The notes below the pieces were generated by a model. It did no database searches. It worked only from the letters and a program-made list of their open reading frames with translations, and was not told where the DNA came from. Positions 373 to 64,000 of a stretch of 64,000 bases of DNA are shown here, piece by piece. The stretch lies in NCBI GenBank assembly GCA_032718475.1, contig JAUCBJ010008112.1:1-64000 (forward strand), written 5' to 3'. The DNA comes from Nemertoderma westbladi. Lineage: Eukaryota; Animalia; Xenacoelomorpha. Positions within the stretch are counted from its first letter, which is position 1. Each line of letters begins with the position of its first letter. Position numbers and translations under genes: made by a program.

Positions 373-482
373 AGCTCCGGATTGGCTCCGGGTTAATTTG
401 CCCGGAGTCGGAACCAGAGCCGGAACTAGAAAATTGGCCCGGAGCTCCGGATTTCCGGAGCCGGAGCTCTGTCGCATCCCTA
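373..482. repeat. Probable right end of a non-autonomous DNA transposon (GGAGCCGGAGC-type subterminal repeats, ending GCATCCCTA)
   Basis: Cluster of GCTCCGG/CCGGAGC motifs ending in a hAT-like terminus; the matching left end is not securely identified. Confidence 0.35.
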
Positions 483-485
483 GTG

Positions 486-4167: not shown

Positions 4168-4257
4168 GAAGTCGAAGGATTTATTGTCAGAAATGTATAA
4201 ATTATTTATATTATTTTCTTCAGAAAAACTTTATTTCTCATCATATAATTTTTCCAG

Positions 4258-13055: not shown

Positions 13056-14152
13056 TGTTCGCGCTTTCAGACCTTTAGCAGTTTAACCTGCCAATTTTAG
13101 TTGTCCTCTTGTTTATAAATCGACTTTAGCCCTTACCAATTACCTGGTGTACTGAAGTTACATCTGCCGAAGCCAGTCCGTGCGCGGCGTATGACCCACG
13201 GTGTGGGAGACTGGATTCGGATTCCTTGGGAAGTATTGCAGTGTAGACCTACTGTATTATTCGATTGATCGCTACTATATAATCTCTGACAACTATATTT
13301 ACTTTCGGGGAAATATTAACAGTTCCTTTAGGACGTGGCGCTTTAAGTATAAAAACAGAGTTATGACTTATACTAATCACAACTAGATGGCCACAGAGTT
13401 TCGTAAATAGCGCATTCTTTAGGAGATGCTTTATTAACCTTCACACTACTTCACATGACTTTACACTACTTCACACTAATTTGCCGACCGTCACTGAATT
13501 TGATCATATATAAGGAGGATTGCAACTGACACACGTAGGGATTATGAAATAGCATTTAATTCACACAAAACCACTATAATTTAACTCGCAGTTGCTACCG
13601 GTAGACTCTATTCCTCTTACCTCAGTAATCAATAAGATTGAGGGGTTTATGATTATTTATCGGTATTCTCCAAATATAACATCAACATCCATTAATATAA
13701 CAACAATTAATACTATAAAACAGAAGTAAAATAGTGCGGTGAAATGAGTTAAGTAAGTAATGTATACAAATGTGAGATGAAATACAGGTGACAAGTTAAT
13801 AGATTTACGTTCTTATAACCAAGGCCATCAGATGTTCCTAGGCTAAAGTCTGAAACTTCCGTACAGAAGCACAGAATTCTGAGTTGGTTCTAATTCTCAG
13901 AAATAATAATAAAGACCATAATGCATTGCGAGTTTCTTAGATAGGGTTCTGTTAGCCGTAAAGTTAAAATTGCTCTGATTGGCTGAATAAGACAGAACAA
14001 AGAACTTCCAAGTACACAAAGAATCAGCTGACAGATTTCGTCATCCTGGTTCCAATTCCTTTCTGACGCATAGTTGAATAATTTTAGGGCTATTTTAGAG
14101 TATTCTGCGCATTGCGTAAAAATGACTTGTTATGTCCGCAAAAGCTTTTACA
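13056..14152 (-). mobile_element. 3' LTR of BEL/Pao element A (~1.1 kb, TG...CA)
   Basis: On the minus strand it begins TGTAAAAGC after a purine tract (GGGAGCAG) and ends GCGCGAACA. It aligns from end to end, in blocks, with 58384-59487. Confidence 0.85.
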
Positions 14153-19604: not shown

Positions 19605-21535
19605 TATAGAATTATATTCCCTAAATGCCGTGGATTTTCAAAATTTTATTTTATTCGGATTAACTTTTGTAAAGATTGCTTTAAGTTCTCATTCGTATTG
19701 GTTCTATCATTTGTACATCTATCGGTCAAGTGGTTCAGTAGCTCAGTTGGTAGAGCGTTGGAAATTATATGTGTAGTAGGTATCGAGTTCGAATCCTAGT
19801 AAGTGCGAATTATTTTTTGTACAGAATTTCAACTCATTTAAATTAACCGCTACAAATTAATTGCATTCGTCTGTACCAATGAGGCTGTAGTTATTTGATT
19901 GTAACCAATGTCGTGCAAGTTATATATTAGCTGGACCAATAGCTATCTTTAAAACCCCGTTAGAACCCATAGAACAATCGAGAATTTTCTCGATTGATTG
20001 CGGCACAAATTTGCTATATAAAGGTGCGATTTGTTCATTAGTTATCAATCTACACTACTTCAATATTCTCTCAGTTATTTAGTTATCTGATATTTGTTTA
20101 TTCTGTGCTTAGTTTATTCTCAGATTACATTGTATTATAATTGTATCTTCTGTAATAAAGTCAGAATATTCTCTCAGCTTTTCTATCTGTTTTACTATGG
20201 ATTCACTACGGTGAACAAACTCAGGGACAGGATGGCCGGCTAGAGATCGGGCCGCAGCAATGAACGGGAACATCACGGGAATGTAGACGAGAGACAACCC
20301 GCAATACCATCTAGAGTTATTCGCCCATCGCCTGAAAGGTTAGACAGCGTTCGATCCTTGCTACCTAAGTATAAGACCAAAAGATCAAAAGGTAGACGTA
20401 GTGACACGCTGTAAGCCCAAAATTACATCATAGGGACTGTACTGTCTTGATTCAGGAAAACCCACAGTAGACCTTCACATTCCTACGGGGGAGGGAGAGC
20501 GCAGGCAGATACTAGTACGCAGATAGGACGTAGGCACACCGGTACAAGGCATACACATTGGTTAGGGTGCAGCAAACTGTACGCTTAACTCTTGCTAAGT
20601 ACAGGTGCGCGTGCGACTATTTGCAGTACGACAGTGTCCATTGCATTAGAACTTGTAGGCTAGGGGGGTTGCTGTGTTTTCACCTGAATTGGGATTGTAC
20701 CGTTCAGGCGGTAGGGCAGTTTACGTACTAGGCGCAAATAAATTGAGGCTATCAGGGATACTAACATCTACCGTGTCCCCGCCAACGCCCTAATAGGAAG
20801 TTACCCGGACTACCTGGGTGACTAAAATTCTAGATAGGAGCCAGGATAGCTATTAGTACCTGTACGCCTACAGTAGTAAACTAACACATCTCTTCTTAGT
20901 ATCAGGGACCTGGTACCTAAAATTGCCGAATTCTGGGCGTAGTATTAACCTTATGCCTGAATTTGAGTCCTGGAAATACGCAAGAGGGGAAGGAACCTTA
21001 TCATTCGTGAGTATTGGACCTACAAGTTACAAAATTAGAATATTCGTAAATGCACACCGTACCCAGTAATTATATATGTGAAGGAGCAAAACTGTTTTGA
21101 CCGTTCAGAATTAACACACGCGCGTTAGAAATTATTTACACCTCGAAATATATAAAATTAACTTTGTCCGTACTGTGCTTTGCCCGCTAGTTAGACATCT
21201 CCAAATCTCTGCCTGTACCTAGCTAGCGTCCCTTTGCCCAACCATATAAATCACACCGCGGCAAAGTATACGAGCCCCTTAGTCCGTCAGTGAGTCAGCC
21301 TGATTTTAGGATTCGCTGTGCGGGATTTTGTTTTATCGAAGTTTGTCTGCTCGTAGACTGTTTTCTGCCTCACCGGTTATAAGAGATCAATACTGCAATA
21401 TATTCGCTTACTTAGAGTTTACTGTTTTGGTGAGAAGGTCGGATTTATGATTTGATTTACAAACTTTACAGTAAGATATTGCAGGTATTGTTACCGTCTC
21501 TTCCAATAGTAGGAATAGGCGTATCTCTTCAATTA
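19605..21535 (+). repeat. 5' LTR of element B (1931 bp, TA...TA termini)
   Basis: Direct repeat of 33759-35689 (offset 14154). Three substitutions found by eye (19788, 20504, 21319). Confidence 0.96.
19732..19818 (+). promoter_or_regulatory. tRNA-like Pol III promoter cassette within the LTR (second copy at 33886-33972)
   Basis: A box TAGCTCAGTTGG(TAGAGC), B box GAGTTCGAATCC, then a T6 run. No acceptor or anticodon stem of a functional tRNA. Confidence 0.65.
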
Positions 21536-21546
21536 GTAGGAATGTG
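21536..21546 (+). promoter_or_regulatory. Putative self-priming primer-binding site of element B
   Basis: GTAGGAATGTG abuts the LTR end and is the exact reverse complement of CACATTCCTAC at 20476-20486. No TGG-initiated tRNA PBS is present. Confidence 0.65.
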
Positions 21547-22342
21547 TTTTACTGAACTACGGTTCGGTAGGACTAAAGTTATTTGAAAATTTTGTATTTT
21601 GAGGTAAAAATTTGTATTTGATTAGCTAAGTGCTAATTTTAAAATAAAATTTGATTTGAACCGCGTGTAAAATATTTTTGGAATTGAATACCGGTGTTTA
21701 AAAGGGTTTAAATACCATATTGTACCGGTACAAAATTTTCGTAAAGTAAAACCTAACTCTTTTGTTTTTTCAGGATTCAGAACTCATTTCTAGACTGTAA
21801 CGGGAGCAAGACCGTGTTTAGCAAGTTTGGGAGATAGATAACTCAACAACTTTGGTTGGGAAAATCGCGTTTCGTCCGCAACGTTAAAAACGGAAAGGTT
21901 CACGTTCGGTTTGTATCTGGGAATCTGTTTTTCTGGAGAATTATTGGAGTGGGTGAGTTCGAAAAGTTGCATAAATAAGTTAGGCATTACCGTATTAGTT
22001 AAAATTATTGTGGGTTCCACTGTCTCAAGTATTTATGCATTCCGTATGATTTCTTTGTTCATTGCTGAATTAGTCCGTATTATTGTATTTAATTTACCTT
22101 TTGATAACGCATATCGTTATCCGATTTATTTGTTATAAAATTGGCTGCTAGGCTAATTTTATTATATACTTATTCCGTGACATTTATTTGCTGTAAAATT
22201 GGCCGTTTAGGCTAATTTTATCCATCTGCTATAAAATCGGCCGGTAGGCTAATTTTATAAGACTGTAATTAGTACCGTTTTGTATAAATACGGTAAAACT
22301 CGATACTTTGACACTCACTTTACTTGACTTACAACTACCGAA

Positions 22343-31381: not shown

Positions 31382-32971
31382 TTCCTTGAACCCTTCTACA
31401 ACTCTGACGCTCAGTGTAATGCCTTTACTCGAGCAGGATTTAGTATATTTCGAGACGTGTATCTTCGCTGTGCGGGATCTCTTATCGAAAGACCATCTAT
31501 GTTTACATTGTTACCCTATGAAGGAGAACGTATCGTGGAGATTACGGAAGAATCACGGCAGACGCGCGCGCCTATCGGTCACCTTGGTGATGAATTCGAA
31601 GTAACTACTACGATCGCCGACGATCCTTTAGAGGAACTTCTTGAGATAGAAAGGAACCTCCCGAAGAAATCTCAGACGGAGATTCGACAACTTGAAGCAA
31701 CAGATGCTATAGTTTGTATACAACCTTCAGAAACCTACCAACCCATAGACCCAGATGATTATGATTATAGTATGGGAGGAAGCGCTCGACCGATTGGAGA
31801 TCTTATATACGAACGAGTGTGGTACCCTGCCAATACGATGTGTAGTAAATGTGGCGTCGCTGGACATCATATGGCAAAGTGCAGTGGAAAGCACATTACT
31901 ACGACTCAGCTAATCTGTGGATGGTGTGGGGATCAAGGGTCTCATACCTTTTATACTTGCTGGAGATTTATGGCTCAATGTACTTACTGCAATATAAAGG
32001 GACATCGAGCATCTGAATGCCAACTGAGAGACATACCTTATGAACACGAATCTGTAAAACTCGTGAGGAAGTTATTTGATGAGTGGGAAGATTTAGCCGA
32101 CGAACATGTATCGGCACAGAGAAGACGGTTTCCGATGAGAGCGCATCTCGGATTTTGGGCGGTAAATCCCCAGACGATGATGTCGGAAGGATATATCTCC
32201 GCTATGCCCCAATACGACGAACTTATCGAGGTTGTCGATATTTTGCCCCACGACAGCGGATTCCGAGTGGTGCGCGAGTATCTGTTACAAATTCACCCGG
32301 ATAACAAAAACACGTGGAATTTTCAGAAAGTCGTTAATCGGATTACGTATGGTGAATTCGATCGTTTCCGAACTGAAAAACGGAATAAAGGAGCTTGGTT
32401 AACCGTCGCATGGGCGTACCGAGCCGCGTTTTACCACAAACGTATACGAGCGAGCGTATTCGAGGAAGAGGAGGTCCTAGAGGCGACAAATATATCAGCC
32501 ACTCCGGTTGCGCCGTCTGCACGTCACCCTCGGGAGGACGGGCAGGGTAGGATCATACGGGTCCAGAAGGTGGGCCAACAATTAAAGAAAATTATTAATG
32601 TAGAAGAACGCAAGGGAGTTGAGCCGACTATTCGAGTTACTCGGGATACGGTATCACTTCCAAGAGAACCAGTAGGAGGATCGGGACATACACCAGCTGA
32701 TCAACAGGGGGCGCAAGCTACTCTTGGGTCTGCGTCGTCCACTTCTCGCGCGTTCCCAGACGTTCTACCAACTGTAGTGACAACTGATCGGTCACGAGGA
32801 ATCGGTCGAGGTTTTGGGATGCTAAATAAACGAATTTGCGAGGAAATAGTCGCACCATCTCTCAACGTCCCAAGTAAACCAGTGACTCGCCCCACAAGTC
32901 CCATATCGCGAGCAAAGTCACCTGTGCGCAGTTTTCGAGGACGCGGCAGGGCTCGATCCACTAAGCGATAA
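31382..32971 (+). CDS. In-frame continuation of the element B polyprotein past a single TGA: three CCHC fingers + basic tail
   Basis: Same frame as 22343. DVFR*FLEPF...AGFSIFRDV aligns with ECFRRFLTLF...AGFAIFKDV of element A ORF2. Fingers: CSKC..H..C, CGWC..H..C, CTYC..H..C. Confidence 0.85.
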   Translation, partial: FLEPFYNSDAQCNAFTRAGFSIFRDVYLRCAGSLIERPSMFTLLPYEGERIVEITEESRQTRAPIGHLGDEFEVTTTIADDPLEELLEIERNLPKKSQTEIRQLEATDAIVCIQPSETYQPIDPDDYDYSMGGSARPIGDLIYERVWYPANTMCSKCGVAGHHMAKCSGKHITTTQLICGWCGDQGSHTFYTCWRFMAQCTYCNIKGHRASECQLRDIPYEHESVKLVRKLFDEWEDLADEHVSAQRRRFPMRAHLGFWAVNPQTMMSEGYISAMPQYDELIEVVDILPHDSGFRVVREYLLQIHPDNKNTWNFQKVVNRITYGEFDRFRTEKRNKGAWLTVAWAYRAAFYHKRIRASVFEEEEVLEATNISATPVAPSARHPREDGQGRIIRVQKVGQQLKKIINVEERKGVEPTIRVTRDTVSLPREPVGGSGHTPADQQGAQATLGSASSTSRAFPDVLPTVVTTDRSRGIGRGFGMLNKRICEEIVAPSLNVPSKPVTRPTSPISRAKSPVRSFRGRGRARSTKR

Positions 32972-33758: not shown

Positions 33759-35689
33759 TATAGAATTATATTCCCTAAATGCCGTGGATTTTCAAAATTT
33801 TATTTTATTCGGATTAACTTTTGTAAAGATTGCTTTAAGTTCTCATTCGTATTGGTTCTATCATTTGTACATCTATCGGTCAAGTGGTTCAGTAGCTCAG
33901 TTGGTAGAGCGTTGGAAATTATATGTGTAGTAGGTATCGAGATCGAATCCTAGTAAGTGCGAATTATTTTTTGTACAGAATTTCAACTCATTTAAATTAA
34001 CCGCTACAAATTAATTGCATTCGTCTGTACCAATGAGGCTGTAGTTATTTGATTGTAACCAATGTCGTGCAAGTTATATATTAGCTGGACCAATAGCTAT
34101 CTTTAAAACCCCGTTAGAACCCATAGAACAATCGAGAATTTTCTCGATTGATTGCGGCACAAATTTGCTATATAAAGGTGCGATTTGTTCATTAGTTATC
34201 AATCTACACTACTTCAATATTCTCTCAGTTATTTAGTTATCTGATATTTGTTTATTCTGTGCTTAGTTTATTCTCAGATTACATTGTATTATAATTGTAT
34301 CTTCTGTAATAAAGTCAGAATATTCTCTCAGCTTTTCTATCTGTTTTACTATGGATTCACTACGGTGAACAAACTCAGGGACAGGATGGCCGGCTAGAGA
34401 TCGGGCCGCAGCAATGAACGGGAACATCACGGGAATGTAGACGAGAGACAACCCGCAATACCATCTAGAGTTATTCGCCCATCGCCTGAAAGGTTAGACA
34501 GCGTTCGATCCTTGCTACCTAAGTATAAGACCAAAAGATCAAAAGGTAGACGTAGTGACACGCTGTAAGCCCAAAATTACATCATAGGGACTGTACTGTC
34601 TTGATTCAGGAAAACCCACAGTAGACCTTCACATTCCTACGGGGGAGGGAGAGCGCAAGCAGATACTAGTACGCAGATAGGACGTAGGCACACCGGTACA
34701 AGGCATACACATTGGTTAGGGTGCAGCAAACTGTACGCTTAACTCTTGCTAAGTACAGGTGCGCGTGCGACTATTTGCAGTACGACAGTGTCCATTGCAT
34801 TAGAACTTGTAGGCTAGGGGGGTTGCTGTGTTTTCACCTGAATTGGGATTGTACCGTTCAGGCGGTAGGGCAGTTTACGTACTAGGCGCAAATAAATTGA
34901 GGCTATCAGGGATACTAACATCTACCGTGTCCCCGCCAACGCCCTAATAGGAAGTTACCCGGACTACCTGGGTGACTAAAATTCTAGATAGGAGCCAGGA
35001 TAGCTATTAGTACCTGTACGCCTACAGTAGTAAACTAACACATCTCTTCTTAGTATCAGGGACCTGGTACCTAAAATTGCCGAATTCTGGGCGTAGTATT
35101 AACCTTATGCCTGAATTTGAGTCCTGGAAATACGCAAGAGGGGAAGGAACCTTATCATTCGTGAGTATTGGACCTACAAGTTACAAAATTAGAATATTCG
35201 TAAATGCACACCGTACCCAGTAATTATATATGTGAAGGAGCAAAACTGTTTTGACCGTTCAGAATTAACACACGCGCGTTAGAAATTATTTACACCTCGA
35301 AATATATAAAATTAACTTTGTCCGTACTGTGCTTTGCCCGCTAGTTAGACATCTCCAAATCTCTGCCTGTACCTAGCTAGCGTCCCTTTGCCCAACCATA
35401 TAAATCACACCGCGGCAAAGTATACGAGCCCCTTAGTCCGTCAGTGAGTCAGCCTGATTTTAGGATTCGCTGCGCGGGATTTTGTTTTATCGAAGTTTGT
35501 CTGCTCGTAGACTGTTTTCTGCCTCACCGGTTATAAGAGATCAATACTGCAATATATTCGCTTACTTAGAGTTTACTGTTTTGGTGAGAAGGTCGGATTT
35601 ATGATTTGATTTACAAACTTTACAGTAAGATATTGCAGGTATTGTTACCGTCTCTTCCAATAGTAGGAATAGGCGTATCTCTTCAATTA
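33759..35689 (+). repeat. 3' LTR of element B
   Basis: Direct repeat of 19605-21535; preceded by purine-rich GGAGCGG and followed by TTGTC. Confidence 0.96.
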
Positions 35690-36333
35690 TTGTCTTTCAA
35701 GTATATCGGTGGGTGCCGTGATATCTTAATCGACAAGAATTTCAGATGGTCAAAGGGTTCAACAGATTTATTTAATAGATTTCATTAATACTATTAATAT
35801 TTGTTAATATTTTGAGCTTCAATACTACTGTTAAATGGACATCATTCTACTATATGTATTATTTAATATACGGTATGAGAGCAATATTGCAAGAAGCAAT
35901 GTCAGTGAGAAGAGGCAAGTCGTTTCCAAGGTCTACCCAGAGCTTGGTATAGCCGAGACACGAGGATCTGAACTTTGCATTCCTAATACTCCACTTACCA
36001 ATAATACTTGAGTATAGTAGGGGCGGTATATTGTACTTTTAATAAGTATGGACATTTCATCTTACTGTAGTCACGTATTTATAGTATGATACGGACAGTA
36101 AGGAAAGAGAAAATGAATTATTTCTCGCCGTTAAACGAAATATATTATACTAAGTAATTAAGTAATAAAACACGAATATATTGCACTAATCTACTGAATA
36201 ATCTCTAAAATATTATTCTACTAAATAAAACTAAAGAAAACGATTATATAATAAAATTACATAATAATACATACATAAATATAAAAATAAAAATAAATAA
36301 AATAATGCAGTCACACACCCACTCCTAACACTG

Positions 36334-42300: not shown

Positions 42301-43793
42301 ACATGGGGTGGTGGTATACCCATTTGCATATTTACTAATTTATCGCGCTCTAAAGCGATACTTTGTTGTACTTCTTGCAGCTCTAACCTACTCTCTCTTA
42401 CTGTTCCCTTTAACAGTTGAACAGTCCCTTCCAATTCTCGGACTTGCTCGGAAGATTTGTTTTTGTTACCTTCCAGCTGCCCGAGCAGCCATTCCATCCC
42501 CCGTCGTCCCTCGTCCACCCACTCAACCGCGGAGGCGGGAGATGCCAACTTAGTAGCTGGATGGCACATCGGGACGACGGGAGACAGTTTGTTGATAATG
42601 TCTTGTTCGGCGTCTAGGACTGTTTGGGATTCCGTCAGTTGTCTACTGGGCACAGGTAGTTTAGTACTGTGCAAAGGGAATTTAGAGTTAGGTTCTGGAA
42701 GTACAGGGGTCTCTATCATAGGAGTGGCTTCGCTAACAGGCCTAATTATTTCGGGCTCATCTACTATAGTAAGGAGTCTTTCTACTCTAATAATTTGGTC
42801 TGTAGGTTCTTGATGACTTAAGTCTGCATTAGCTAGTTGCCTTCTCACCACAGGAGGCAAATTAGGTACTTCTGCCGGTGTGGCGCTCTTCTACATCCAC
42901 TTGAACGAGATTTATTACCTTTACCCTCGGGATCCGTTGTATCACCTTCATCAGAGGAGGTAAATCCCTGTCTTCTGGGAGTAGATCGACTCAGTAGTTG
43001 CATCTGAGTAGCTGCTCTCTGTTTATTTAAGTAATCTTGTTTCGCCTGAAGATTCTCCAACTCTAGTTGGGTTGTCGCTTCAGATGCTCATCGTTCTGCT
43101 TCTGCCACTGCCGCTGCTGCTACCGCTTTTCTTTCGGCCTCTGCCACTGCCGCTGCCGCTGCCGCCGCTGCTGCTAACTTTCGATCTTCTATTTGCCTTT
43201 TCTTTATTTGTTCTTCTTGGTCCATTACGATGAGGATGCTTTCAGCAAATTTAGCCTCCTCCGCAGCTAATATTTCCGCATCTAAAGAGTCCAACCCGAA
43301 TTTGGCTCCCTCACTATTGGGATGAATTCCAGCTAGCCGTCTTCTTAGCTCTTTGTCACCTATAAATCGTTGATAATCCGACAGATAGATGTCAATAGCA
43401 TCCTTCTTTTGAGGTTTTCCGGATATCGCTTCGCCTTCCACATGAGAAAAGGTGGCATCTGTTGATTCTCCGTGGGTAGCTCGTTCAGTTAGCTGAACCC
43501 TCCATTGTGTTGTTCCCTGGACTTTAACATTCACTCGTTGGAACCAAGTCTTTACAGCCACTTGCAACGACGTGTCTTGGCTTCTCTTCGAGGCTTCCTC
43601 AAAGGCTGAAAGGATTAATCTGATCCGCAAGATACGTTCTCGCACTTGATAAAGCAGCTCTCCCTGCTCTTGAGGTCCTTTTGGTTGTTGGAATAAATGC
43701 TCTTCTAGTCGTTCCAAGGAGTTGAAGAATCCCTGGACATATCCTGCTGCTGACCTCTAAGTCGTCTAATAGTGTCTGACAGGAACGAAGCAC
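36334..43793 (-). pseudogene. Element A gag-pol (Gag-PR-RT-RNase H-integrase), disrupted and 5'-truncated
   Basis: Consecutive ORFs 43599-43793, 43088-43717, 42845-43060, 40983-42860 (gag, CYNC..GHQRRTC), 39350-41008 (LLDSGST, RT N-part), 39041-39325 (YMDD) and 36334-39066 (FGDAS, NPAD, H..H..CIPC, GVDLFGP / SDKGTNF / WERL integrase). Confidence 0.93.
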
Positions 43794-44029
43794 ACCATCG
43801 AGCTAAAATTATATACAACGGGGTCTAATAGTGTCTGACAGGAACGAAGCACACCATCGAGCTAAAATTATATACAACGGGGTCTAATAGTGTCTGACAG
43901 GAACGAAGCACACCATCGAGCTAAAATTATATACAACGGGGTCTAATAGTGTCTGACAGGAACGAAGCACACCATCGAGCTAAAATTATATACAACGGGG
44001 TCTAATAGTGTCTGACAGGAACGAAGCAC
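43764..44029. repeat. 59-bp tandem repeat, 4.5 identical units, at the truncation point of element A gag
   Basis: GTCTAATAGTGTCTGACAGGAACGAAGCACACCATCGAGCTAAAATTATATACAACGGG at 43764, 43823, 43882, 43941 and 44000 (partial). Confidence 0.93.
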
Positions 44030-45115
44030 GGTAGATTGGCAGACAGATATTCAATGATAACTCAAGAACTAAAGGTGATCTCTTTAATTAAGCCGTTTTC
44101 AGATTTGAAATTCTCATTAAATTATACTATAAATGCAATAAAAATCAACTTTCTGAAATTTAGAACCTTAGAACCAGAGGGCTACCCCCCCCCCCCCCCC
44201 CCCCCTAACTTAAAATACATTTGTAATCATGTTATATTCCGCATTGCGTATTTATTCTAGAACACTATTTATCTTACGACAGATGTTTTACATAGTAACA
44301 ACAATAAATTAACATTCAGAGGTTTGAGATACTGGTCAATATAAGTAAGGAAAATCTAAGATAGAAACAATTTTTGTAATTTATTGAAAATAAGTATTAT
44401 GTTTGCAGTAGCCTAAGGAATGGGTTACTAATTTTGTAACATTGTACGTGTCGTGTTATTGCACATGCACACACTGTTACTGGTAATACATGCATAGCTC
44501 GTAGTGCATTTGGAGTACACTGTGGTGGACTCGTAGTGGTGGCTCACTCGTAGTGGACTGTGGCCAAGTAATGCACCGATATAGGCCTACCTCTCTCACC
44601 TCAGGAATACATTCTACCAGCTAGCTAACATTCTCTAGAATTTGTCCTCAATTAGCCGCAGAAGTGAGTTCGAATGTGGACGTCGTGGCCGTTGCATTTA
44701 GGACCCTGCAGTGGTCACCCAAACTTATATTTTACATTTGCATTAATCAGTTTCAGTTTTATTTTGATAATATATTACTTTACACGCTATTGCAGGCCTT
44801 GTCCGCACACTTGCAATACAAATTGCAACGTAGGCTGTAGGCTATACAGTAGTGGTGGCTGAATATTGTCTGTGCAGTAGCTCTCCCATACGTTTGCAAA
44901 CATTATACGCTCTTCTTACACCATGTCCTGCAATATAGTGTCCTAATTCAGTGACATGGAAAATGTTTTTCGACAAATCTTAAGGAGGGTGTGCTTGTTG
45001 TGTTGTTAATGGTTTTGTGCTTTCTTGGTGCTAGATAGAATATTCACAGACATTCTTACTTATTATCTCAGAATGACATTTTTTCATTTTTAAAACACTA
45101 CCGGTACTCCTCATT

Positions 45116-46215
45116 AGATCACTCATGGTGGTGAACAGGCATTACTTTAGGAAACAGAGTGGAGGGGTTTACTGTGGAAGATCACCCATGGTGGTGAACA
45201 GGCATTATTTTGGGAAGCAGAGTGGAAGGGTTCCACCTTGGTGTAGTGGTCGCATTGAATTCACATCTCCCGTAGGTCGTGGGTTCGATCCTCACATGGG
45301 CCAGGGTAGTTTTCGTTTCGGCACGAATGCTTTAAAGGGACCAGCCAGGGCGCTTCTCTGCCTTGCATCTTTAATTGGTAGCTAAATGAGTACTGGAGTT
45401 TCCTCTGGGGAGTAAAGTTCTGGGGGGACCGCACTGGAAATAAGTCGTCAGACTTTGTGCGTAATCCCTGGCCTAGCGGCCGAAGAAAATTTACTTGTTT
45501 GAATGGTTTACTGTGGAAGATCACCCATGCTGGTGAACAGGCATTCCTTTAGAAACAGAGTGGACGGGTTTACTGTGGAAGATAATCCATGGTGGTGAAC
45601 AGGCATTCCTTTGGAAAACAGAGTGGAAGGGTTTACTGTAGAAGATCACCCATGCTGGTGAACAGGCATTCCTTTAGAAACAGAGTGGAAGGGTTTACTG
45701 TAGAAGATCACCCACGCTGGTGAACAGGCATTCCTTTAGAAACAGAGTGGACGGGTTTACTGTGGAAGATAATCCATGGTGGTGAACAGGCATTCCTTTG
45801 GAAAACAGAGTGGAAGGGTTTACTGTAGAAGATCACCCATGCTGGTGAACAGGCATTCCTTTGGAAACAGAGTGGAAGGGTTTACTGTGGAAGATCATCC
45901 ATGGTGGTGAACAGGAATTCCTTTGGAAAATAGAGTGGAAGGGTTTACTGTATCACCCATGGTGGTGAACAGACATTCCTTTAGAAACAGAGTGGAAGGG
46001 TTTACTCTGGAAAATCACCCATGGTGGTGAACAGGCATTCCTTTGGAAAACAGAGTGGAAGGGTTTACTGTAGAAGATCACCTATGGTGGTGAACAGGCA
46101 TTCCATTACAGACTGAGTGGAATGGATTACGGTGGAAGATCACCCATGGTGGTGTGGTGAACAGGCATTCCTTTGAGAAACAGAGTGGAAGGGTTTACTG
46201 TGGAAGATCACCCAT
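45116..46215. repeat. Second block of the 63-bp satellite, interrupted by a SINE
   Basis: Same unit and orientation as 486-4167, somewhat more diverged. Confidence 0.95.
45233..45504 (+). mobile_element. tRNA-derived SINE inserted in a satellite unit
   Basis: A box TGGTGTAGTGG, B box GGTTCGATCCT, ~270 bp. The satellite resumes in register after it (GGTT on both sides). Confidence 0.75.
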
Positions 46216-50631: not shown

Positions 50632-52805
50632 TATACACCATGACCCGTAATATAGTGTCATTTTCTGATGACACGGACCCCCCCCCCCCCCCCAAATTTT
50701 TCTTCAAATCTTTATCATATTGCTTGAAATTTGAAACACAACTAGTTCAACTCACCGTGGTTGTTACCATGAAACCGGAATTTTCGATTTCGCCTTTAAA
50801 TTTTATTTATAAGCGTTTTAAAAAAGTGTCTTTTGCGAAATCGCACCCTCCTGTATCATTGCCATTCTTCACTTCAGTCGTATTTTTTTCATATCAATAA
50901 AAAGCTTGCGTTGCAAGGATTCCAAATATGTAACAATGTCTGAATTTCGTTGAGAAACAGCTGAGATATAGGCGTTCAAAGATTGCAAGAATTATTGTTC
51001 ACTGCAGGCCATTTATTCTATTTAATAAATACACAATATTCTGGAACAATTTGTTTATGTATGATTAGCTACGCAATATAGATATTGTATAGGCATACCG
51101 CTGTTGCCTACCAACTCATAAAATAAATAACACGTTCTAGAATTTTGTGTATTTATTAAATAGAATAAATGGCTTGCAGCGAACAATAATTCTTGCAATC
51201 TTTGAACGCCTATTTCTCAGCTGTTTCTCAATGAAATTCAGATATTGCTACATATTTGGAATCCTTTCAACGCAAGCTTTCTATTGATGTGAAAAAATTA
51301 CGACTAAAGTGAAGAATGGCAATGATACAGAGGGTGCGATTTCGCAAAAGACACTTTTTTAAAACGCTTATAAATAAAATTTAAAGGCGAAATCGAAAAT
51401 TCCGGCTTCATGGTAACAACCACGGTGAGTTGAACTAGTTGTGTTTCAAATTTCAAGCAATATGATAAAGATTTGTAGAAAAATTTGGGGGGGGGGGGGG
51501 GGGGTCCGTGTCATCAGAAAATGACACTATATTACGGATAATTGAATGTACCGACATACTGGTGATGTATATATTAACTTTAAGGTAAACACTAGAGTCT
51601 TACACCCTTTAACTACAAAAAAAATATAGAATCAGGACATTAAGCCCAAAATACCTTCCAGACCCTAAGGCCATCAAGGAACACAAAACAAAACAAACAA
51701 AAAACACAAACACAAGTATAGTATCAGGACATTAAGCCCAAAATACCTTCCAGACCCTAAGGCCATCAAGGAACACAAAACAAAACAAACAAAAAACACA
51801 AACAAAATATATTATACCATGCTCCACATACAAGTATGTATCGCAACCCTAACCCTAAAACCTAGCCGCCATACACTAAATGATACCGGTATTAAACTGC
51901 ACAAAAGCTAAGCCTATATTCTATAAGAAAATATATGACATTTTTGTCGCCGTGAAAGAGGTATGACTAAAACAAAATAATTAATTTGTTAAAAATATGG
52001 TTGCGTTTCGGCGTCTACGACCAGTACGCGCTAATCCTCGACACCTCATCAGCTGGACAGGGAATTAGCCAAGCCTAACTATATTGCACCATTGACCTAA
52101 ATTAATCGCACCATCAACTCAGTTACCACTCAGCCCAAACAGACTTCAGACCTCAGAACATTGGAACACTATAGGCCTACAGTAAGTAAACATGTAACCA
52201 ATGGAAAACTGGTAGTTTGCTAGAGCAAACACACAGCACAAAAATTATATAAGATTTAACAACATGCAGTGATGCCGGAGTTCTGCTCTATCCCAGTAAA
52301 AATTTGGGATATTCATATGTGATAATTGAATGTACCGACATACTGACTAACAGGGGGTTGTGATGTATATATTAACTTTAAGGTAAACACTAGAGTCTTA
52401 CACCCTTTAACTACAAAAAAAATATAGAATATATATGTGGAGCATGGTATAATATATTTTGTTTGTGTTTTTTGTTTGTTTTGTTTTGTGTTTCTTGATG
52501 GCCTTAGGGTCTGGAAGGTATTTTGGGCTTAATGTCCTGATACTATACTTTTGTTTGTGTTTTTTGTTTGTTTTGTTTTGTGTTTCTTGATGGCCTTAGG
52601 GTCTGGAAGGTATTTTGGGCTTAATGTCCTGATACTATACTTTTGTTTGTGTTTTTTGTTTGTTTTGTTTTGTGTTCCTTGATGGCCTTAGGGTCTGGAA
52701 GGTATTTTGGGCTTAATGTCCTGATTCTATATTTTTTTTGTAGTTAAAGGGTGTAAGACTCTAGTGTTTACCTTAAAGTTACTATATTACGGGTCATGGT
52801 GTATA
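50632..52805. mobile_element. MITE with ~410-bp terminal inverted repeats and TA ends (Tc1/mariner-like), with an insertion in its right TIR
   Basis: Left arm ~50632-51047 is the reverse complement of ~51134-51537 plus 52793-52805. Ends TATACACCATGACCCG / CGGGTCATGGTGTATA. Confidence 0.85.
51538..52780. mobile_element. Palindromic insertion with 92-bp subrepeats
   Basis: ~51577-51830 is inverted relative to ~52434-52780. The 92-bp unit occurs twice on the left and three times on the right; flanked by duplicated ACTATATTACGG. Confidence 0.7.
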
Positions 52806-53099: not shown

Positions 53100-54830
53100 T
53101 CTTCAAGGCCAGTGTCCTTTAAGATGCGTCTCAAGAAAGTCATGGGCTAGCCACCATGCTTATTCACTCCATGAGGCTGCTAAAGTACAAGATTATGCAC
53201 TGGCTGGTCCTCACGGGGAAAGCAATGTCCTGCAAAGCGGAGGCGATTTTGTTCTAGTGTCAAGCTTGGGGGAACCAATGAGACACCTCCAATGTTATAT
53301 AGTGTCTGGTTGGAGATGTGTGCATTGAACTTGACACAATGAACCCGGCGTAGCATTCTTGTGAATGTGCCGTCCAGAGATTTGGTGTCCTCAGCAGTTA
53401 GAGCCCAGCATGGACTCCCATAGAGGAGTACTGGAACTACTGCTGCTCTAAATAACCGGACCTTAAGTTTCCGATTAATTCTTGGTGACTTCCAAATCCT
53501 GGAAAGCCTATTCAAGGCTGCCCATGCCTTTCCCTTACGTATTCGAAGGTCCTCACCTGACTTCCGGATCCATGATCCCAGGTAACAGAAGTCATCCACA
53601 TGCTCAAGCATACCATCTTTTGAGCTTATGCTCATCCGATCAGAGACTTGCTGAGGACTTTCAAAGTTAACTGTCAAAATTTTGGTCTTTCTCGAGTTAA
53701 TAAAAAGACCAACACTAGAAGCAGCATGTTCTAATGAGCTGAGGAGCCGTTGGGCTCCCTCTAGTGATTCTGAGAGTACTCCTAAGTCATCAGCAAAGTC
53801 TAGATCAGTTAGGTACTTGGCAGGATTTCCTCGACTTCTGGAGCAAGTAGGTGGAGTTATCATCACCCCATCATCATTATGATGATCTAAGGATATGCGT
53901 AGAACATAGTCAACAACAATTATGAACAAGAATGGTGCAAGTGTGTCTCCCTGGAGGACGCCCCATAACACTTCAAATGGTTCTGTGTCACCGTCAACAG
54001 TAGACACAAATGTTGTCGAACCATCGTATACTGATCTGATTGCTGCAATAATTTCATCAGGAATCCCATATAATGAAAGTATGCTGAACATACGTGAGCG
54101 AGAGACTGAATCAAAGGCCTTGAAGAAGTCAACAAAGATAACAGCCAGATGCCTGTCTTTCTTTTTTGATAACTCTTCAATTATCCTTCTAAGTGCCAAA
54201 ATGGGCTCCATGGTCCCACGACCTTTACGGAACCCATTCTGATTTCCACGGAGCAGTCTCTCAATGGGATCCCTGATGCGATTTAATAGAATTCTATTGT
54301 ATAGCTTTGCAGCAATCGAGATCAATGACATTCCCCGAAAAGAACCATAGAGTGTTAGGTTGCCCTTCTTGGGAACTGGCACCAACTTATTTGTTTTCAT
54401 TTCTTGTGGGACTCTTGTTGTACGGTACATGTCTACTATGATGGGGTAGATGAGCTTTAAACACTCAGGTATTTTAAGACCTCAGGGGGAACACCATCTA
54501 CTCCACTGGCACGATTGGTCTTAATGCTCTTTGCAGCAGCCTTCACTTCTGCAAAGGAGATATCACCAATGGGAATATCTGGGAGTACAGACTCAGACAC
54601 TTTTACTTCTATAAAGTTATCAGGCAATACCCTGTCATTATTGAGGAGCTTTTCAAAGTGGGCCTTCCAACCATTGAGGCGATCGGCTGGTGATTCAGCC
54701 TTAACCTTGGTGGTTGGTTGGCTTCTTCGACCAGCAAGCAAGTTGATCGATCTCCATGCCTGGGATGATTGCCTGCTGTCGTCAGCATCCCCCATAAGGA
54801 ACTTTGTTGCGGCAACCCATGACCTACAAT
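53100..54830 (-). mobile_element. 5'-truncated non-LTR retrotransposon (RTE-like RT), decayed
   Basis: ORFs 54457-54795 and 53180-54430 carry QNGFRKGR, FVDFFKAFDSV, GVLQGDTLAPFLF, LDFADD, FCYLGS, RLRFAGHC. Confidence 0.92.
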
Positions 54831-57765: not shown

Positions 57766-58383
57766 CTATTCTGTATACATCAGGTTCCTAAATGAATTGT
57801 TCCACGTTCCCACAAATAATGTTCAAAAGTACAATCTCATGGCATACTTGTAGTATCTTAATTCAGTGGCCTGAACCATCTGATATTAATCCTCAACGCT
57901 ATTCAGATGTTTTACAGAATTAGGATCCTTGTGGGCGAATCATCGCGGCCCATCTGTACAAATAATTACGGTAACAAAAACGGCTCAAATTAGTGGCGGT
58001 GTTAATGGTGCAATATTGGTACGTTTAATAGTGAGATATATTTTCAATCACTTGTATCAAAAGTCTGAAAGCGAAAATAGTATTCCAGGAGTTGGGACTT
58101 TTGGTAATATTATTTCAGTTGTTTTATTGCAGTTTGGCCCCAATTATATTCTAGCGGTATTGGAGAGGTAATAAGCCAGCGATGCACACTACCCGGAGTC
58201 CGTTGCCACTGTAAAAGCTTCTGTGGGATGCAACTGGTCCTTCGCCCCGCGATCCAGTTTTTCCCCCATACGCTGAAATACTCTGAAACCTGCTGTAAAA
58301 GCGTTTACAGATATAATTGGATCCCCTAGCCCTCGGGGTGCTGTATAAGTGTTTTTAACGGACATAAAATAGATTCTTCTGAA

Positions 58384-59487
58384 TGTGTGCTTTATGCGGA
58401 CGTAGCAGGGTACACAACCCGCAATGCGGCATTTCACTGTCACTATGTCAAGGGAAGGATTCTGATTACGACATCTCCCAGCTGGATGATGACGTGGAGG
58501 GAGCTCTCATTGGACTCCTGGTTCCTTTGTTTTGGTCTAACAACCAATCAGGGTGATTTGCGTTTTCCTTGAAGAGATACCTACAGCAGCTCCCAAACTC
58601 AGTGTTTATGTCGTTCCATACTGCCTGAAGATCGGCTGGAATGACGCAATGTTTCTGCCTTTTTATAAGAACATTAGTAGGCTAAATTATAGAAAGCATA
58701 GCTATTATCGATTCGATCCGATTCGATTCGACACGATTCCAATTTATAACTTAACGATTCAATGCAATCTAATTATATCTTAACCTACCGTCATACTGCT
58801 TTTACTGTTTGTAATTTTGTATCAGTATAATTGGATGTTATTAGTTGAAGAATATCAATAATCAACCCACATTTTCCCAATATCTTTGATACACTACAGG
58901 TTAGAGAGAAAGGTTATGTACAACAATTGCGACTTTATTATTGTGTTTGTAGTGAATCTAATGTTGTTTGACAGACACTACCTGAGTCCAGTGCATATCT
59001 CTTTATACCTGATCAAAGTCAGTAACTGTCGGCATATCAGTGAGCAGTGTTGTGCGTTACCGGTAGCGTGCGTGATTGTAAAGTGATTGGATCTGATAAT
59101 AAAGCATTCCTAAAGAATGCGCCCTATGCTTGAAATTTAAGCCATATCGTTGTGTGTAGTATCAGTCATAACTCTGTTTACATAGGTAGAGCGCCACGTC
59201 CTAAAAGGAACTGCTAATATTTCCCGAAAGTGAATAATATTTGTCAGAGATTATATATTAGTAATCAATCGAATAATACAGTAGGCTTGACCGCAAATAA
59301 ATTTAAGCCCACGAATCCAGTCTCCCGGTGTTATAAACGGGTCATTTGGACGCGCATGGACTGGCTTCGGCTAATGTTTTTGGTTTGTTTTGTATTAAAT
59401 CTTATCATCTTACAAAAGGCAGATTATCAATAAAGACATATAAATTTCGGCAGGTTAAACTGCTGAAGGTCTATAAAAGCGCGTACA
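58384..59487 (+). mobile_element. 5' LTR of BEL/Pao element C (~1.1 kb, TG...CA)
   Basis: Colinear with the reverse complement of 13056-14152. Ends GCGCGTACA (A: GCGCGAACA). Conserved TTATAAGAAC at ~58663. The start is uncertain by a few bases. Confidence 0.8.
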
Positions 59488-59498
59488 ATAATAGCTAT
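59488..59498 (+). promoter_or_regulatory. Putative self-priming primer-binding site of element C
   Basis: ATAATAGCTAT abuts the LTR's terminal CA and is the exact reverse complement of ATAGCTATTAT at 58698-58708. Confidence 0.65.
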
Positions 59499-59744
59499 CG
59501 ATCTTATTTGCGGTAAGCAATAAGATTGAAAATACCGGTACTACTACCGTAGGTCCGTAGGCCCAACTGTCATAACCGGTACTGCTGTGCAAGTACATTA
59601 GTATTATTTCGATTGTGATCTATTGTATATTGTGGGCTGCCAGGGGAATAGGGATTGATCACCCCTCATTCTTTTGTATAGTTTACTTATTTCTGTCGGT
59701 TTTATTTACTAGTAAGTTAATATTGAGCCGAAGACGTGTAAGTC

Positions 59745-60325
59745 TGCTCAGATTGTTCAGATCATTGTAGGCTGGACTGTTGTCTGACGGTTGTTAGGCT
59801 TGAAGATTACAGCGTGTGTAGAGAGTCTGATAGGTGCCAGTTAGTAAGTTGGGGCAACTCGTAAGTTGTAAGGTCAACCCCTATAAAGAATAAGCCGCGC
59901 TACCTTATTAGCACGCATACTCACTAACAAGTTTCGGAATCTGCATATACTGTGGTTATTTAGGCTTGATAGTAGTCCGTCAGCGTTTATCCTGTATTGT
60001 TTGTATAGTCTGTTCAGATACCGTAATATTATTCAGATATTTTGTGGGCTGGATTGTTGCCTAGCTGTTGTTGGGTCTGAAGGAATTGCTACGTGTGTAG
60101 AGTAAGTCTGATAAAGTGCCGTTAGTAAGTTGGGGCAGCCATCGCTGTAAGGACAATCCCCTCTTAAAGAATAAGTCGTACTACCGTATTAGCACGCATA
60201 CTAACTAACAGTTTCAGAATCTGCACATACAGTAGTTTGTTTAGGCTTAGTGGTAGTCTGTCAGCATTTTAGTTTGTATTTTATTTGAGTATTCTGTACG
60301 GGTAGCGTAATATTTATTATTCAGA
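59745..60325 (+). repeat. Diverged ~277-bp tandem duplication in the 5' leader of element C
   Basis: GGCTGGA.TGTTG...GTTAGTAAGTTGGGGCA...ATTAGCACGCATACT at ~59770 and ~60047. Confidence 0.75.
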
Positions 60326-61482
60326 GTTTATGCAATTACTCGCAACATTCATGTCCCCAAGTTTATTCCTACAGTAATTGTGTTTGTTATACATACCGTT
60401 ATAGTTAAATTAACCCCAGTACTACACGGGCTGCTTGGCGTAGGTAAAGACTGGTGACTTAGTGCCCCGGTCACTCCAGCAGATGCTGTGGTTCTTTTAA
60501 CTGTTCAAGTATATTTAACTACTGGTTATCTGTTTTACAAGTACCTGTACCTAATTTAGGGTTTAGTGTACAGTGCTGTCCGAGAGTAATTAGTGTAGGC
60601 ATTATTGTGTTGTAAAGTAGTTAATAGGCACGCTCGTTCTGGTAGACGGCGGTAATTAACTTCTAGGTAGGAACACTCCGTAGATACATAACGTTGTACC
60701 TATAGCGCTACGGCTGTAGGTCGTCAGGCGGTGGTATTTTCCTATCTAGACAACGCAATATTTACTTCTGCTTATTATTTTCAAATACCGTAGTATCCTG
60801 TCCGTTGAAATAACCAGGAGATCTAACCCTTTGTTAGACTGGTTAGTAGTTTCCCTGTAAAATTGCCCTAAAAATCTGTACGTACCGTTTTTGTGTGTTT
60901 ATTAGAGATTGTAATCTCACCAATAGTAAGTAACTAGTAAATAAGTAACGTAGGCCAGTAGAATTATTCTGTTTAGTGTCCCATAAGTAGCACTTCACTG
61001 AAAGCGCACAGCTTCTGTGTAGTGGTATTTTACCGGAAATAGTAACACCTATTTCAATCTTGTAACAAATCCCTTATCAGGGTATATATATATTATAAAT
61101 CAACTCCAAAGATTTATAAATCAGTAGGCCTGTCATACAACAAGTAGGTCTCAATATCAGTTGGACTACTGCTTACATAACGGTAACAGAGTAAACTCAA
61201 GTAACTAAGTAACCTTATAATTTCAGAAATTCAATTATCCTAAATAATTGATATACCGGTATCTATAATAGGCTTAATATATATTTGTATATATTTGTAC
61301 TGAAATTATATACCGGTACTCTGTGACAAACCTAGTCTGCAATAATTATATATACTGTGGGTGTATACCGGTATCCTAATATATCGTAATTAATTACCGG
61401 TACTAGGCCAACAGTCCTACTGAATTACTGGACTTGCTTTAACTGTAACTATAGCAGTAGGCATTCAACTGTATAACTAAAC

Positions 61483-64000
61483 ATGGCTGACATAAAGAAA
61501 ACTCTGTCAGATAGTCTTTTAGAAACAACAGCCTGTTTCTCAGATCAAAGTGTAGAGAATCCTAGACCGAGATCTGAGACCCCTCCTACTGTAAGAAGGG
61601 CAACCCCTGCAGTAGTTGTGTCAGAACCTAGGTTGGTAGAAGCGATTTCGCAATTTGCTAAGTTAGTGAAGCGCCGTAGGTCTGCCATAGGCACTCGGGC
61701 CCAAGTCAAACGGAACCCAGAGGAAGCTGTCCTATCGCAGCAACATCCTGATCACGAACCTAGTCCCCAGCGACCCGATAGCTCCAGTAGTTCGGAGACT
61801 GTTGAGCGGACACCCGAACGCGGAGCGAAAATGGTGGATACGGCTTGTGATGAGCGGCCAACCTTTGAAGAATCAACCGACGCCCCTTCTTCTCAAGTAG
61901 AAAGCGAAGTGGAAAGCGAAGTGGAAAGCGAAGTGGAAAGCGAAGTGGAAAGCGAATTAACACCAGAAGGACCACAAAAGAGAGATGCAATTGATACCTA
62001 TTTGTCAGATTATCAGCGATTCATAGGAGACAAGGAGTTGAGAAGAAGACTGCATGGATTTACACCTAATAGTGCAGGGGCTAAGCGTGTATTGGACGAA
62101 CTCGATGCTGAGATGTTAGCTAAAGATCAAGCTAAATTTGATGAGGAAAGACGCATCGCTAGAGCCCAGGAAACACAAGTCCAGAAAAAACAAATAGAAG
62201 ATCGAAAGGCAGCAGCAGCGGCAGAGGCAGAGGCAGCAAGAAAGTTAGCAGCGGCAGAGGCAGAGGCAGCAAGCAAGCTAGCAGCGGCAGAGGCAGCAAG
62301 CAAGCTAGCAGCGGCAGAGGCAGAGGCAGAAAGAAAATTGACAGAAGCGGAAAAGAGAGCTTCTGACGAGATCGCCCAACTAGAGTTGGCAAATCTGCAA
62401 GAGACACATGATTACATCAATAAACGCGACACAGAAAGTCGAATGAAGATACTGAGTCGATCTACTTCGAAACGCCAAGGTTTTACATCCTCAGAAGAAG
62501 GAGACACTACCGACACTGAAGGTGGAAGAAATAGATCCCGTCTCAGTAGGCGTAAAAGAATGTCTCCACGTCAGAAATTGCCTGATTTGCCTCCAGCTGT
62601 TAAGAGACAACTAGCTAGCATAGCAGTAGATAGTACAGAACCCACAGACCAAACTATTACCATTACCAGACTCCCTACTATAGTAGATGAGCCGGAAATA
62701 ATTAGGCCTGTTCTAGAAAACACCCCTTCGGTGAGAGAGACCCCTGTACTCCCCAAATCTACTACCAAACTCCCTTTACACAGTACTATTAAATTAACGG
62801 CACCTGGTGGAGCAGCCCAAGTCCCGGTTCTGGAGACTGAGAGAGACATACAAGATCTGTCTCCCGTCGCCCCGATACGGCCCGCTACAACGTTGGCGAC
62901 TCCCGCTTCGGCGGTCGAGTGGGTTGAGAAGGGACGGCGGGAGATGAGTCTCTTGCTCGGTCAAATGCGAGAACAGCGAGACTGTTCCTCGCAACAGATC
63001 CGGGACTTAGAAGGGACTGTCTACCAACTCAAGGGAACCGTAAGGGATAGTAGGATAGAGCTGCAAGAAGTGCAGCAAAATATCGCTCTCGAGCGCGACA
63101 AATTAGTCAATATACAAAGGGGAATACCAACACCCCCTGTAACCCTGTGTCAACCTGCTAGGTCGGAAGTGTATCATGCGCGAGGTGTGTCGCCTACACG
63201 CATATATACTGCTAGCAAAGTAGAAACACCCCCTATAACCCTGAGTCAACCTGTTAGGTCTGAAGTACATCATGCGCAAGGTGTGTCGCCTATACGCATA
63301 TATACTGCTAGCGAAGTAGAAACTCCTATAGTAAACCCTATTACGGGAGACTACAAACCTGTGAATAATGATATTCCCTATAGACCTGATAATGATCTGA
63401 AAAATTTATATACCGATAATTCGATATTAAATAACACGATGGCCCAAGAAAGCTTTACGCGTCAGATGGCTAGAACAGAAGCCCGCCAAGCGGTCAAAGT
63501 GGGAGAAATTGTCAAATTCAACGGTGATGAGATGAAATGGTTACCTTTTAAAGAATATTATGAAGATAGCATACAGAACTCTGTACTATCTAGCGGAGAG
63601 AAACTGAGATTCCTCATCAAATGTTTGGAAGGACCTCCCAAGTTAATGGCGTTGAAGTTTATTGGACATCCAAATGGATTAAGACAAGTCTGGGATACAT
63701 TAAACACCAGGTATGGTAATAAAGATAATATCGCTAAGTATTTGTATGCAAAACTGGTAGCCCCTCGAAAGTTCCTTAGTAACGAGATTATAGAGTTTTC
63801 CGATGAGATTCAAGAAATCTGCCGACAATTGGATTGGTTAGGTAAGTCCCATGAATATCAGAGCTCCATGGTCATCGGAGCCATAGTCTCTACTTTGCCA
63901 AAGGGTGGAGTATGTACACGTTGGGACAAGAAGGTGTTGCATATGATGGAGCAACAACGACGGAGCCCCACCATGGTGGATCTCATGTCATTCCTAGACC
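61483..64000 (+). CDS. Element C Gag (N-terminal part, runs off the window)
   Basis: Frame starts MADIKKTLSDS and the window ends in the same frame (RSPTMVDLMSFLD). Closely homologous to element A gag (DAIDTYLSDYQRFIGDKELRRRL; MAQESFTRQMARTEARQAVKVGE). Absent from the ORF track, consistent with no stop inside the window. Confidence 0.9.
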   Translation, partial: MADIKKTLSDSLLETTACFSDQSVENPRPRSETPPTVRRATPAVVVSEPRLVEAISQFAKLVKRRRSAIGTRAQVKRNPEEAVLSQQHPDHEPSPQRPDSSSSSETVERTPERGAKMVDTACDERPTFEESTDAPSSQVESEVESEVESEVESEVESELTPEGPQKRDAIDTYLSDYQRFIGDKELRRRLHGFTPNSAGAKRVLDELDAEMLAKDQAKFDEERRIARAQETQVQKKQIEDRKAAAAAEAEAARKLAAAEAEAASKLAAAEAASKLAAAEAEAERKLTEAEKRASDEIAQLELANLQETHDYINKRDTESRMKILSRSTSKRQGFTSSEEGDTTDTEGGRNRSRLSRRKRMSPRQKLPDLPPAVKRQLASIAVDSTEPTDQTITITRLPTIVDEPEIIRPVLENTPSVRETPVLPKSTTKLPLHSTIKLTAPGGAAQVPVLETERDIQDLSPVAPIRPATTLATPASAVEWVEKGRREMSLLLGQMREQRDCSSQQIRDLEGTVYQLKGTVRDSRIELQEVQQNIALERDKLVNIQRGIPTPPVTLCQPARSEVYHARGVSPTRIYTASKVETPPITLSQPVRSEVHHAQGVSPIRIYTASEVETPIVNPITGDYKPVNNDIPYRPDNDLKNLYTDNSILNNTMAQESFTRQMARTEARQAVKVGEIVKFNGDEMKWLPFKEYYEDSIQNSVLSSGEKLRFLIKCLEGPPKLMALKFIGHPNGLRQVWDTLNTRYGNKDNIAKYLYAKLVAPRKFLSNEIIEFSDEIQEICRQLDWLGKSHEYQSSMVIGAIVSTLPKGGVCTRWDKKVLHMMEQQRRSPTMVDLMSFLD

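Follow-up and report, generated by a model that had tools for sequence, protein, structure and literature searches.

Self-priming of reverse transcription is established for Tf1 of Schizosaccharomyces pombe, in which the first 11 bases anneal to the PBS (primer-binding site), RNase H cutting between bases 11 and 12 (PMC7175516, as far as its available text goes), and which requires duplexes between PBS-adjacent and LTR sequences (PMC10085805, available in part). The same mode has been proposed for Tj1 and the Tf1/sushi group (available part of PMC4600332), and self-primers have been predicted in the Tcn1 clade and in the TAR lineage of Ty1/copia, with an in-silico criterion of complementarity to the 5′ LTR over 10 nt or more, starting 0-5 nt after it (available part of PMC6317226). 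It has moreover been suggested that LTR elements first self-primed and took up tRNAs later (PMC3601003). For the BEL/Pao superfamily, the start of reverse transcription is hardly treated in print: a full-text literature search, with older BEL, Pao, Tas, roo and Cer papers outside its coverage, found no self-priming in BEL/Pao, and the available parts of a BEL/Pao survey and of the Sinbad paper mention no primer site of any kind.

The 64-kb window analysed (the whole stretch of DNA under study) is eukaryotic, rich in AT, and contains satellites as well as nested retroelements, among them three elements here called A, B and C. Like Tf1 and Tf2 of S. pombe and Tj1 of S. japonicus, element C has a site flush with the CA end of its LTR that complements its own LTR RNA; as in Tf1, the pairing is 11 nt long, in C as well as in B, and neither element has a TGG-type tRNA site. 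A further candidate PBS-adjacent duplex between leader and LTR, downstream of the primer, is a likeness to Tf1 as well, with compensatory change seen once. Unlike the Tf1/sushi elements, which belong to Ty3/gypsy, C has BEL/Pao domains and no chromovirus features, and it also differs from Tf1 in its 1278-nt LTR with a duplex closing a 779-nt loop, and in that only one of the two extra 'pretzel' duplexes was found. In Tf1 both the start of the transcript and the cut by RNase H have been proven; in C they are predicted. B and C also fall under the same sequence criterion (11 nt, offset 0) as the Tcn1 clade (Ty3/gypsy) and the TAR lineage of plants (Ty1/copia: Houba, Osr-1), but belong to another superfamily and another host, and BEL/Pao is not mentioned in the available part of that work. 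As in tRNA-primed LTR retroelements, the primer site follows U5 directly and the 3′ LTR is preceded by a polypurine tract; B and C differ from these in that no TGG-type site is present in B, in C or in the one leader recovered for A-type elements.

Three BEL/Pao elements and the boundaries of their LTRs

The large reading frames of the window were assigned by Pfam to the BEL/Pao superfamily (Peptidase_A17, DUF1759 gag, Integrase_H2C2, DUF5641) and belong to A on the minus strand and to B and C on the plus strand. The features of C and A to which the following refers are these:

58210 to past the window end, plus strand: element C, with an open gag frame of 841 codons
58210..59487, plus strand: 5′ LTR of C, 1278 nt, TGT...ACA
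58544..58548, plus strand: CCAAT box in U3 of C, a putative promoter element read from the sequence
58664..58670, plus strand: TATAAGA box of C, 34 nt before the 11-mer
58698..58708, plus strand: candidate self-primer ATAGCTATTAT, predicted from TATA spacing only to be the first 11 nt of the transcript (start of R)
59098..59103, plus strand: AATAAA of C, likely polyadenylation signal, which would place the end of R at about 59120
59290..59300, plus strand: U5 arm of a second pairing, ACCGCAAATAA, exact complement of 59504-59514
59488..59498, plus strand: primer-binding site of C, ATAATAGCTAT, flush with the LTR end
59504..59514, plus strand: leader arm of the second pairing, TTATTTGCGGT, within a predicted local hairpin at 59498-59529
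61477..63999, plus strand: gag frame of C, 841 codons, open at the window edge, DUF1759
13056..14152, minus strand: 3′ LTR of A, 1097 nt, with TATAAGA at 13817-13811 and U5 arm at 13244-13234

Element C is a BEL/Pao LTR retrotransposon. Its frame at 61477-63999 matched PF03564 (E 1.1e-13), a DUF1759-type gag, and A and C form one family, with a gag nucleotide identity of 83%. The pol of A carries PF05380, PF17921 and PF18701 by Pfam, the pol of C lying beyond the window end, and at least 120 homologues of A pol have the same domains as A; the best database homologues show about 34% identity and are spread over many animal phyla. B represents a family apart from A (43% protein identity in an alignment of 288 residues in the RNase H region). 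Pfam and homologue searches returned BEL/Pao families only and no Ty3/gypsy chromovirus pol, the mark of the Tf1/sushi group.

Both ends of the C LTR were located by more than one line of evidence. It begins at 58210 with TGTAAAAGCTT, its first 11 nt being identical to those of the A LTR; at this position contig depth goes up by orders of magnitude and contigs of the flank end, and in one sibling copy of C the LTR start is directly preceded by the polypurine-type TGGGAGCGG, a polypurine tract like those preceding the 3′ LTRs of A and B. Its end at 59487 (...GCGCGTACA) had been placed in the original prediction by alignment to the end of the A 3′ LTR (...GCGCGAACA), with the proviso that the true end might lie elsewhere. 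The placement held: a public contig of the C family stops at 59486, in keeping with an LTR end at 59487, and the end of A at 13056 is fixed independently of C, since contigs of the high-copy repeat flanking A stop matching at 13055. The A 3′ LTR is adjoined by the polypurine tract CTGGGAGCAG followed by TGT, so that TG...CA-ended long terminal repeats with a polypurine tract are documented by the C LTR, the C sibling and A.

Within U3 (58210-58697), what C shares with A is limited to the start of the LTR, TTATAAGAAC, which covers the TATAAGA region, and two short words; 9-mers common to both U3 regions occur in four places only, TTATAAGAAC among them. This word is kept in A at 13818-13809, in agreement with the earlier statement that the TATAAGA box found 34 nt before the C 11-mer is conserved in A. 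A CAGCCAATCAG-type block of the C U3 is found in A too, as is the TAATAAAGCAT block around the C AATAAA. The 11-mer starts at A58698, after C58697 (a C-A step). With six TATAWR words in the C LTR, a distance of 28-36 nt downstream of such a word applies to 3.5% of LTR positions, so the TATA spacing is suggestive of a transcription start there, and no proof. From these signals we infer that R measures about 420 nt and U5 about 370 nt. A reading of the C 11-mer as part of a polyadenylation site was rejected, there being no AATAAA or ATTAAA upstream of it. In the 2-kb leader of C, a tandem duplication of about 280 nt occupies 59752-60325; public contigs skip or repeat one such unit, so its copy number differs among family members.

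Element A is old and broken: B lies inside it, the internal part can be followed only to about 44058, and the 5′ end is missing. The sequence flanking its 3′ LTR at 12960-13055 is a very high-copy repeat, from which public contigs diverge at 13055; because they continue differently from there, A was inserted into another repeat. Between pol and 3′ LTR (14231-17161, minus strand) A has a 976-codon frame without Pfam hit, in the place of an extra and perhaps envelope-like gene. The minus-strand stretch 47425-47200 was considered as the missing 5′ LTR of A and discarded, being a weak LTR-start-like fragment without LTR end: it matches weakly the first 196 nt of the A LTR plus a 17-nt U5 word, then passes into AT-rich simple sequence, and is a decayed LTR fragment.

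Self-complementary primer sites of C and B

The 11 nt directly behind the C LTR, ATAATAGCTAT (59488-59498), are the exact reverse complement of ATAGCTATTAT (58698-58708). When the sequence was re-read by script, the predicted self-complementarity was confirmed in its length and its flush position: it spans exactly 11 nt, the bases outside it being unpaired on both sides (58697 C/59499 C and 58709 C/59487 A). The C word occurs at two places in the 64-kb window, the PBS and the LTR site, and nowhere else, against an expected count of 0.07, and two or more matches were seen in 0/100 shuffles. Within the window the C family offers a single readable PBS. The corresponding features of B are these:

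19605..21535, plus strand: 5′ LTR of B, 1931 nt, 99.8% identical to 33759-35689
19600-19604 and 35690-35694: 5-bp target duplication TTGTC of B
20476..20486, plus strand: LTR word CACATTCCTAC of B, complementary to the B PBS
21536..21546, plus strand: primer-binding site of B, GTAGGAATGTG, at offset 0

The boundaries of B are exact because of the target duplication, and GTAGGAATGTG (21536-21546) is the exact reverse complement, over 11 nt, of 20476-20486. The same length and position with unrelated letters, 11 nt at offset 0, thus recur in B and C, as had been claimed. The claim that such pairing is unlikely to be chance is likewise borne out: of 52,746 background 11-mers taken from the window, only 29 find a reverse complement at any position of the C LTR (5.5e-4) and 60 at any position of the B LTR (about 1e-3), figures that apply per 11-mer at one position fixed in advance for each of the two elements. 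The 30 nt that follow the 5′ LTR contain no TGG in either B or C.

Folding is compatible with the pairing in both elements. From the 11-mer to the leader of C, pair probabilities are 0.88-1.0 for the nine inner pairs; the primer/PBS duplex, with 2/11 G-C pairs, is AU-rich (-10.6 kcal/mol) and closes a loop of 779 nt. In B, ten pairs have probabilities of 0.93-1.0 and the duplex reaches -15.6 kcal/mol. An 8-nt palindrome, ATAGCTAT, lies inside both the C primer word (58698-58705) and the C PBS (59491-59498), so that two RNA copies could pair with each other via either stretch.

The promoter context of the two words differs. The nearest TATAWR word to the B 11-mer is 106 nt away and none stands at a C-like spacing, while a strong promoter-like block of three CCAAT motifs and TATATAAAG lies about 460 nt upstream of the 11-mer; this block looks like the real promoter of B. 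Since the B complement is not at a TATA-predicted start, a 5′-terminal primer is no general rule here. An AATAAA lies 107 nt behind the start predicted from the CCAAT/TATATAAAG block; self-priming in B would need an R that extends beyond 20486, and hence use of the AATAAA at 20737.

Regarding the coding part of B, a frame of 3017 codons in the plus-strand region 22328-32971 aligns to A pol up to the RNase H region, where the alignment ends; the roughly 900 codons beyond have neither an integrase match nor a Pfam hit, and the same is true of the next frame (31382-32971). Given the absence of an integrase match together with 99.8% LTR identity and a clean 5-bp duplication, B probably owes its integration to an enzyme provided in trans. 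In the U3 of B, the plus-strand stretch 19728-19810 resembles by eye a tRNA-derived head followed by a T run, with motifs that we take to be D-arm and T-arm boxes; ARAGORN and Rfam made no call on it.

For the A subfamily, the leader was recovered from two loose public contig ends of another, related organism, with an agreement of 0.85 at the A LTR end. It contains no TGG site, and the canonical tRNA site that had been named as a possible counterexample among family members was accordingly absent from the one A-type leader in which it was sought. Its first 11 nt have 7 positions in common with the C PBS and find no complement in the A 3′ LTR, either contiguous (at most one mismatch) or GT..AG-split; the site also differs from the one predicted from the sequence about 34 nt downstream of TATAAGA (minus strand near 13783). 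Because the leader comes from another organism and the A copy is old, this mismatch neither supports nor refutes self-priming.

Further downstream, the leader and U5 of C have a second pairing, an exact 11-bp match of 59504-59514 with 59290-59300. Nucleotides 19-29 of the A-type leader are in turn the exact complement of A U5 13244-13234, a stretch that aligns with C 59290-59300 and has most letters different. The second leader-U5 pairing, as judged from these two contigs, shows compensatory change across subfamilies. It is absent from the minimum-energy fold, in which each arm forms a local hairpin instead, and forcing both helices together costs 18 kcal/mol. A third Tf1-like duplex, between post-primer and pre-PBS sequences, was not found: 228/300 shuffles were as good as the real sequence for C and 8/300 for B. 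Likewise, comparison of the leader with the whole R-U5 was no better than shuffles (96/300 and 28/300).

Origin of the primer

We consider it reasonably probable that the primer for the minus-strand DNA of C is, as in Tf1, the element's own RNA and not a tRNA; such a Tf1-like mechanism would probably operate here in a superfamily for which the literature searched does not describe self-priming. In the proposed scheme, transcription would start at or near A58698, so that R would open with the 11-mer. By folding back across 779 nt, the 11-mer would reach the site adjoining U5; the RNase H of the element would cut after nucleotide 11 (58708/58709) and leave a 3′-OH, from which reverse transcriptase would extend through U5 and R before jumping via R to the 3′ end. 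The primer would in turn be copied during plus-strand synthesis and the PBS thereby rewritten, which would explain how site and primer stay matched in spite of family-specific letters. Since the site abutting U5 is by definition the place where the minus-strand primer anneals, the flush position favours priming. That the primer of C is specifically the capped 5′ end starting at 58698 is a more tentative proposal, for which we would put the chances at a little under even.

It is possible, though we hold it unlikely, that the primer is instead an internal piece of R, acting in cis or coming from a second RNA copy, and that the TATA spacing is a coincidence; the 11-mer would then be cut from a longer transcript, as the intron-split relatives described below would require. 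The B 11-mer would in fact lie about 430 nt inside a transcript started from the CCAAT/TATATAAAG block, the complement in the relatives L032 and L040 extends across a predicted junction of two exons, some 100 nt downstream of a TATA box, the corresponding word of L010 stands 60 nt behind its TATA word, and the ATAGCTAT palindrome makes pairing between two RNAs as easy as within one. Against an internal primer, the conserved TATAAGA precedes the C word by 34 nt, a spacing of the kind shared by only 3.5% of LTR positions, the word itself begins at a C-A step, and an internal primer would, by extension of the Tf1 scheme, leave a 5′ tail that is copied in plus-strand synthesis unless removed. Distinctly less probable is a purely structural role of the pairing, in cyclisation, dimerisation, packaging or translation control, with another RNA as primer. 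Stems between U5 and leader occur in retroviral leaders, and the palindromic core ATAGCTAT could serve dimerisation; however, in B as in C the pairing starts with the base that directly follows U5, its length in both is the 11 known from Tf1, and no alternative TGG site lies within 30 nt.

Priming by a host RNA with the same 11 nt, for instance a fragment of a tRNA or another small RNA, the LTR copy being secondary, would find a precedent in the half-tRNA primers known in Ty1/copia elements (available part of PMC6317226), yet two families with unrelated sites would each need both such a host RNA and an LTR copy of it. Moreover, ARAGORN found 0 tRNAs in the window, Rfam nothing relevant in the LTR of B or C, and neither 11-mer resembles the CCA end of a tRNA, which makes this origin very improbable. 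AT-rich sequence does raise the rate of short matches, but the joint chance for two fixed positions, in B and C, is about 6e-7 and the LTR boundaries of both were fixed independently, so that coincidence or a misplaced boundary hardly enters into consideration.

Metagenome relatives and wider implications

Relatives were collected with an alignment of A pol and four homologues, which identified 544 in metagenome contigs, 80 loci being kept. Both LTRs lie inside the contig in three of the 80 (L021, L032 and L040); L021 was not counted, its LTR end being blurred by internal repeats. A contiguous complement of at least 10 nt was found in 0/3 of these two-LTR relatives. In L032 and L040, however, 12 nt starting 3 and 2 nt, respectively, after ...ACA complement a predicted splice joint, formed by removal of a predicted LTR intron of the type GTAAG...pyrimidine-tract-AG (149 nt in L032, 77 nt in L040), while split-complement hits at control offsets numbered 0/360 for each.

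A strict split-complement scan of the 80 loci gave nine events on the element strand versus four on the control strand, and five of the nine, in four families (L032/L042, L040, L046 and L056), lie directly after ACA, with a complement of 12-13 nt that lies about 100 nt behind the TATA box and bridges a predicted intron of 77-423 nt. The positions within the loci are:

L032, 2400-2549 and 2775-2787: split-complement sites
L040, 907-984 and 1079-1091: split-complement sites
L046, 199-622 and 761-774: split-complement sites
L056, 531-625 and 768-780: split-complement sites

A looser scan (12 nt, any GT..AG, 2.5 kb) amounted to noise, with 2331 positions on the element strand versus 1851 on the control strand. 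These four families resemble B and C in being BEL/Pao, in having TGT preceded by a polypurine tract of the GGGGCCGG or GGGAGCGG type, and in that the site adjoining ACA pairs with the own LTR; they differ in that the complement arises after intron removal only, whereas it is contiguous in the DNA of B and C, in neither of which a split version was found. Contiguous inverted 11-mers in the 80 loci amounted to 195 pairs, eight of them with ACA before the downstream arm, which is no enrichment. L010 and L057 alone have an inverted 11-mer at the place expected of a primer site, that of L010 with its word 60 nt behind a TATA word; both are circularly assembled contigs, and their contiguous 11-nt sites are tentative candidates. 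An exact-pattern scan of the metagenome contigs for the U5 end common to A and C gave 0 matches, and a pol search of viral contigs found 0 relatives.

In these BEL/Pao relatives, the LTR-adjacent site would thus appear to pair with the own LTR, mostly across a predicted intron. That the BEL/Pao superfamily as a whole self-primes, with C in the plain Tf1-like form and relatives splicing an LTR intron, is a rather doubtful extension; self-priming would then be present in all three superfamilies of LTR retrotransposons and could be the ancestral start of DNA synthesis. Should B and C self-prime, the idea that self-priming came first (PMC3601003) would gain a third superfamily, annotation tools that look for tRNA sites would miss such elements or set their bounds wrongly, and the pair of primer and site would form a family barcode evolving in step.

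The window also contains repeats of other kinds. The same 63-bp satellite occurs in two arrays, at 410-4190 and 45116-46215, and 59-bp repeats are found at 43705-44058. A near-perfect palindrome of 900 bp lies at 50645-51537, and the remnant of a non-LTR retroelement at 53180-54481 on the minus strand, with a frame of 433 codons that carries RVT_1 and DUF6451.
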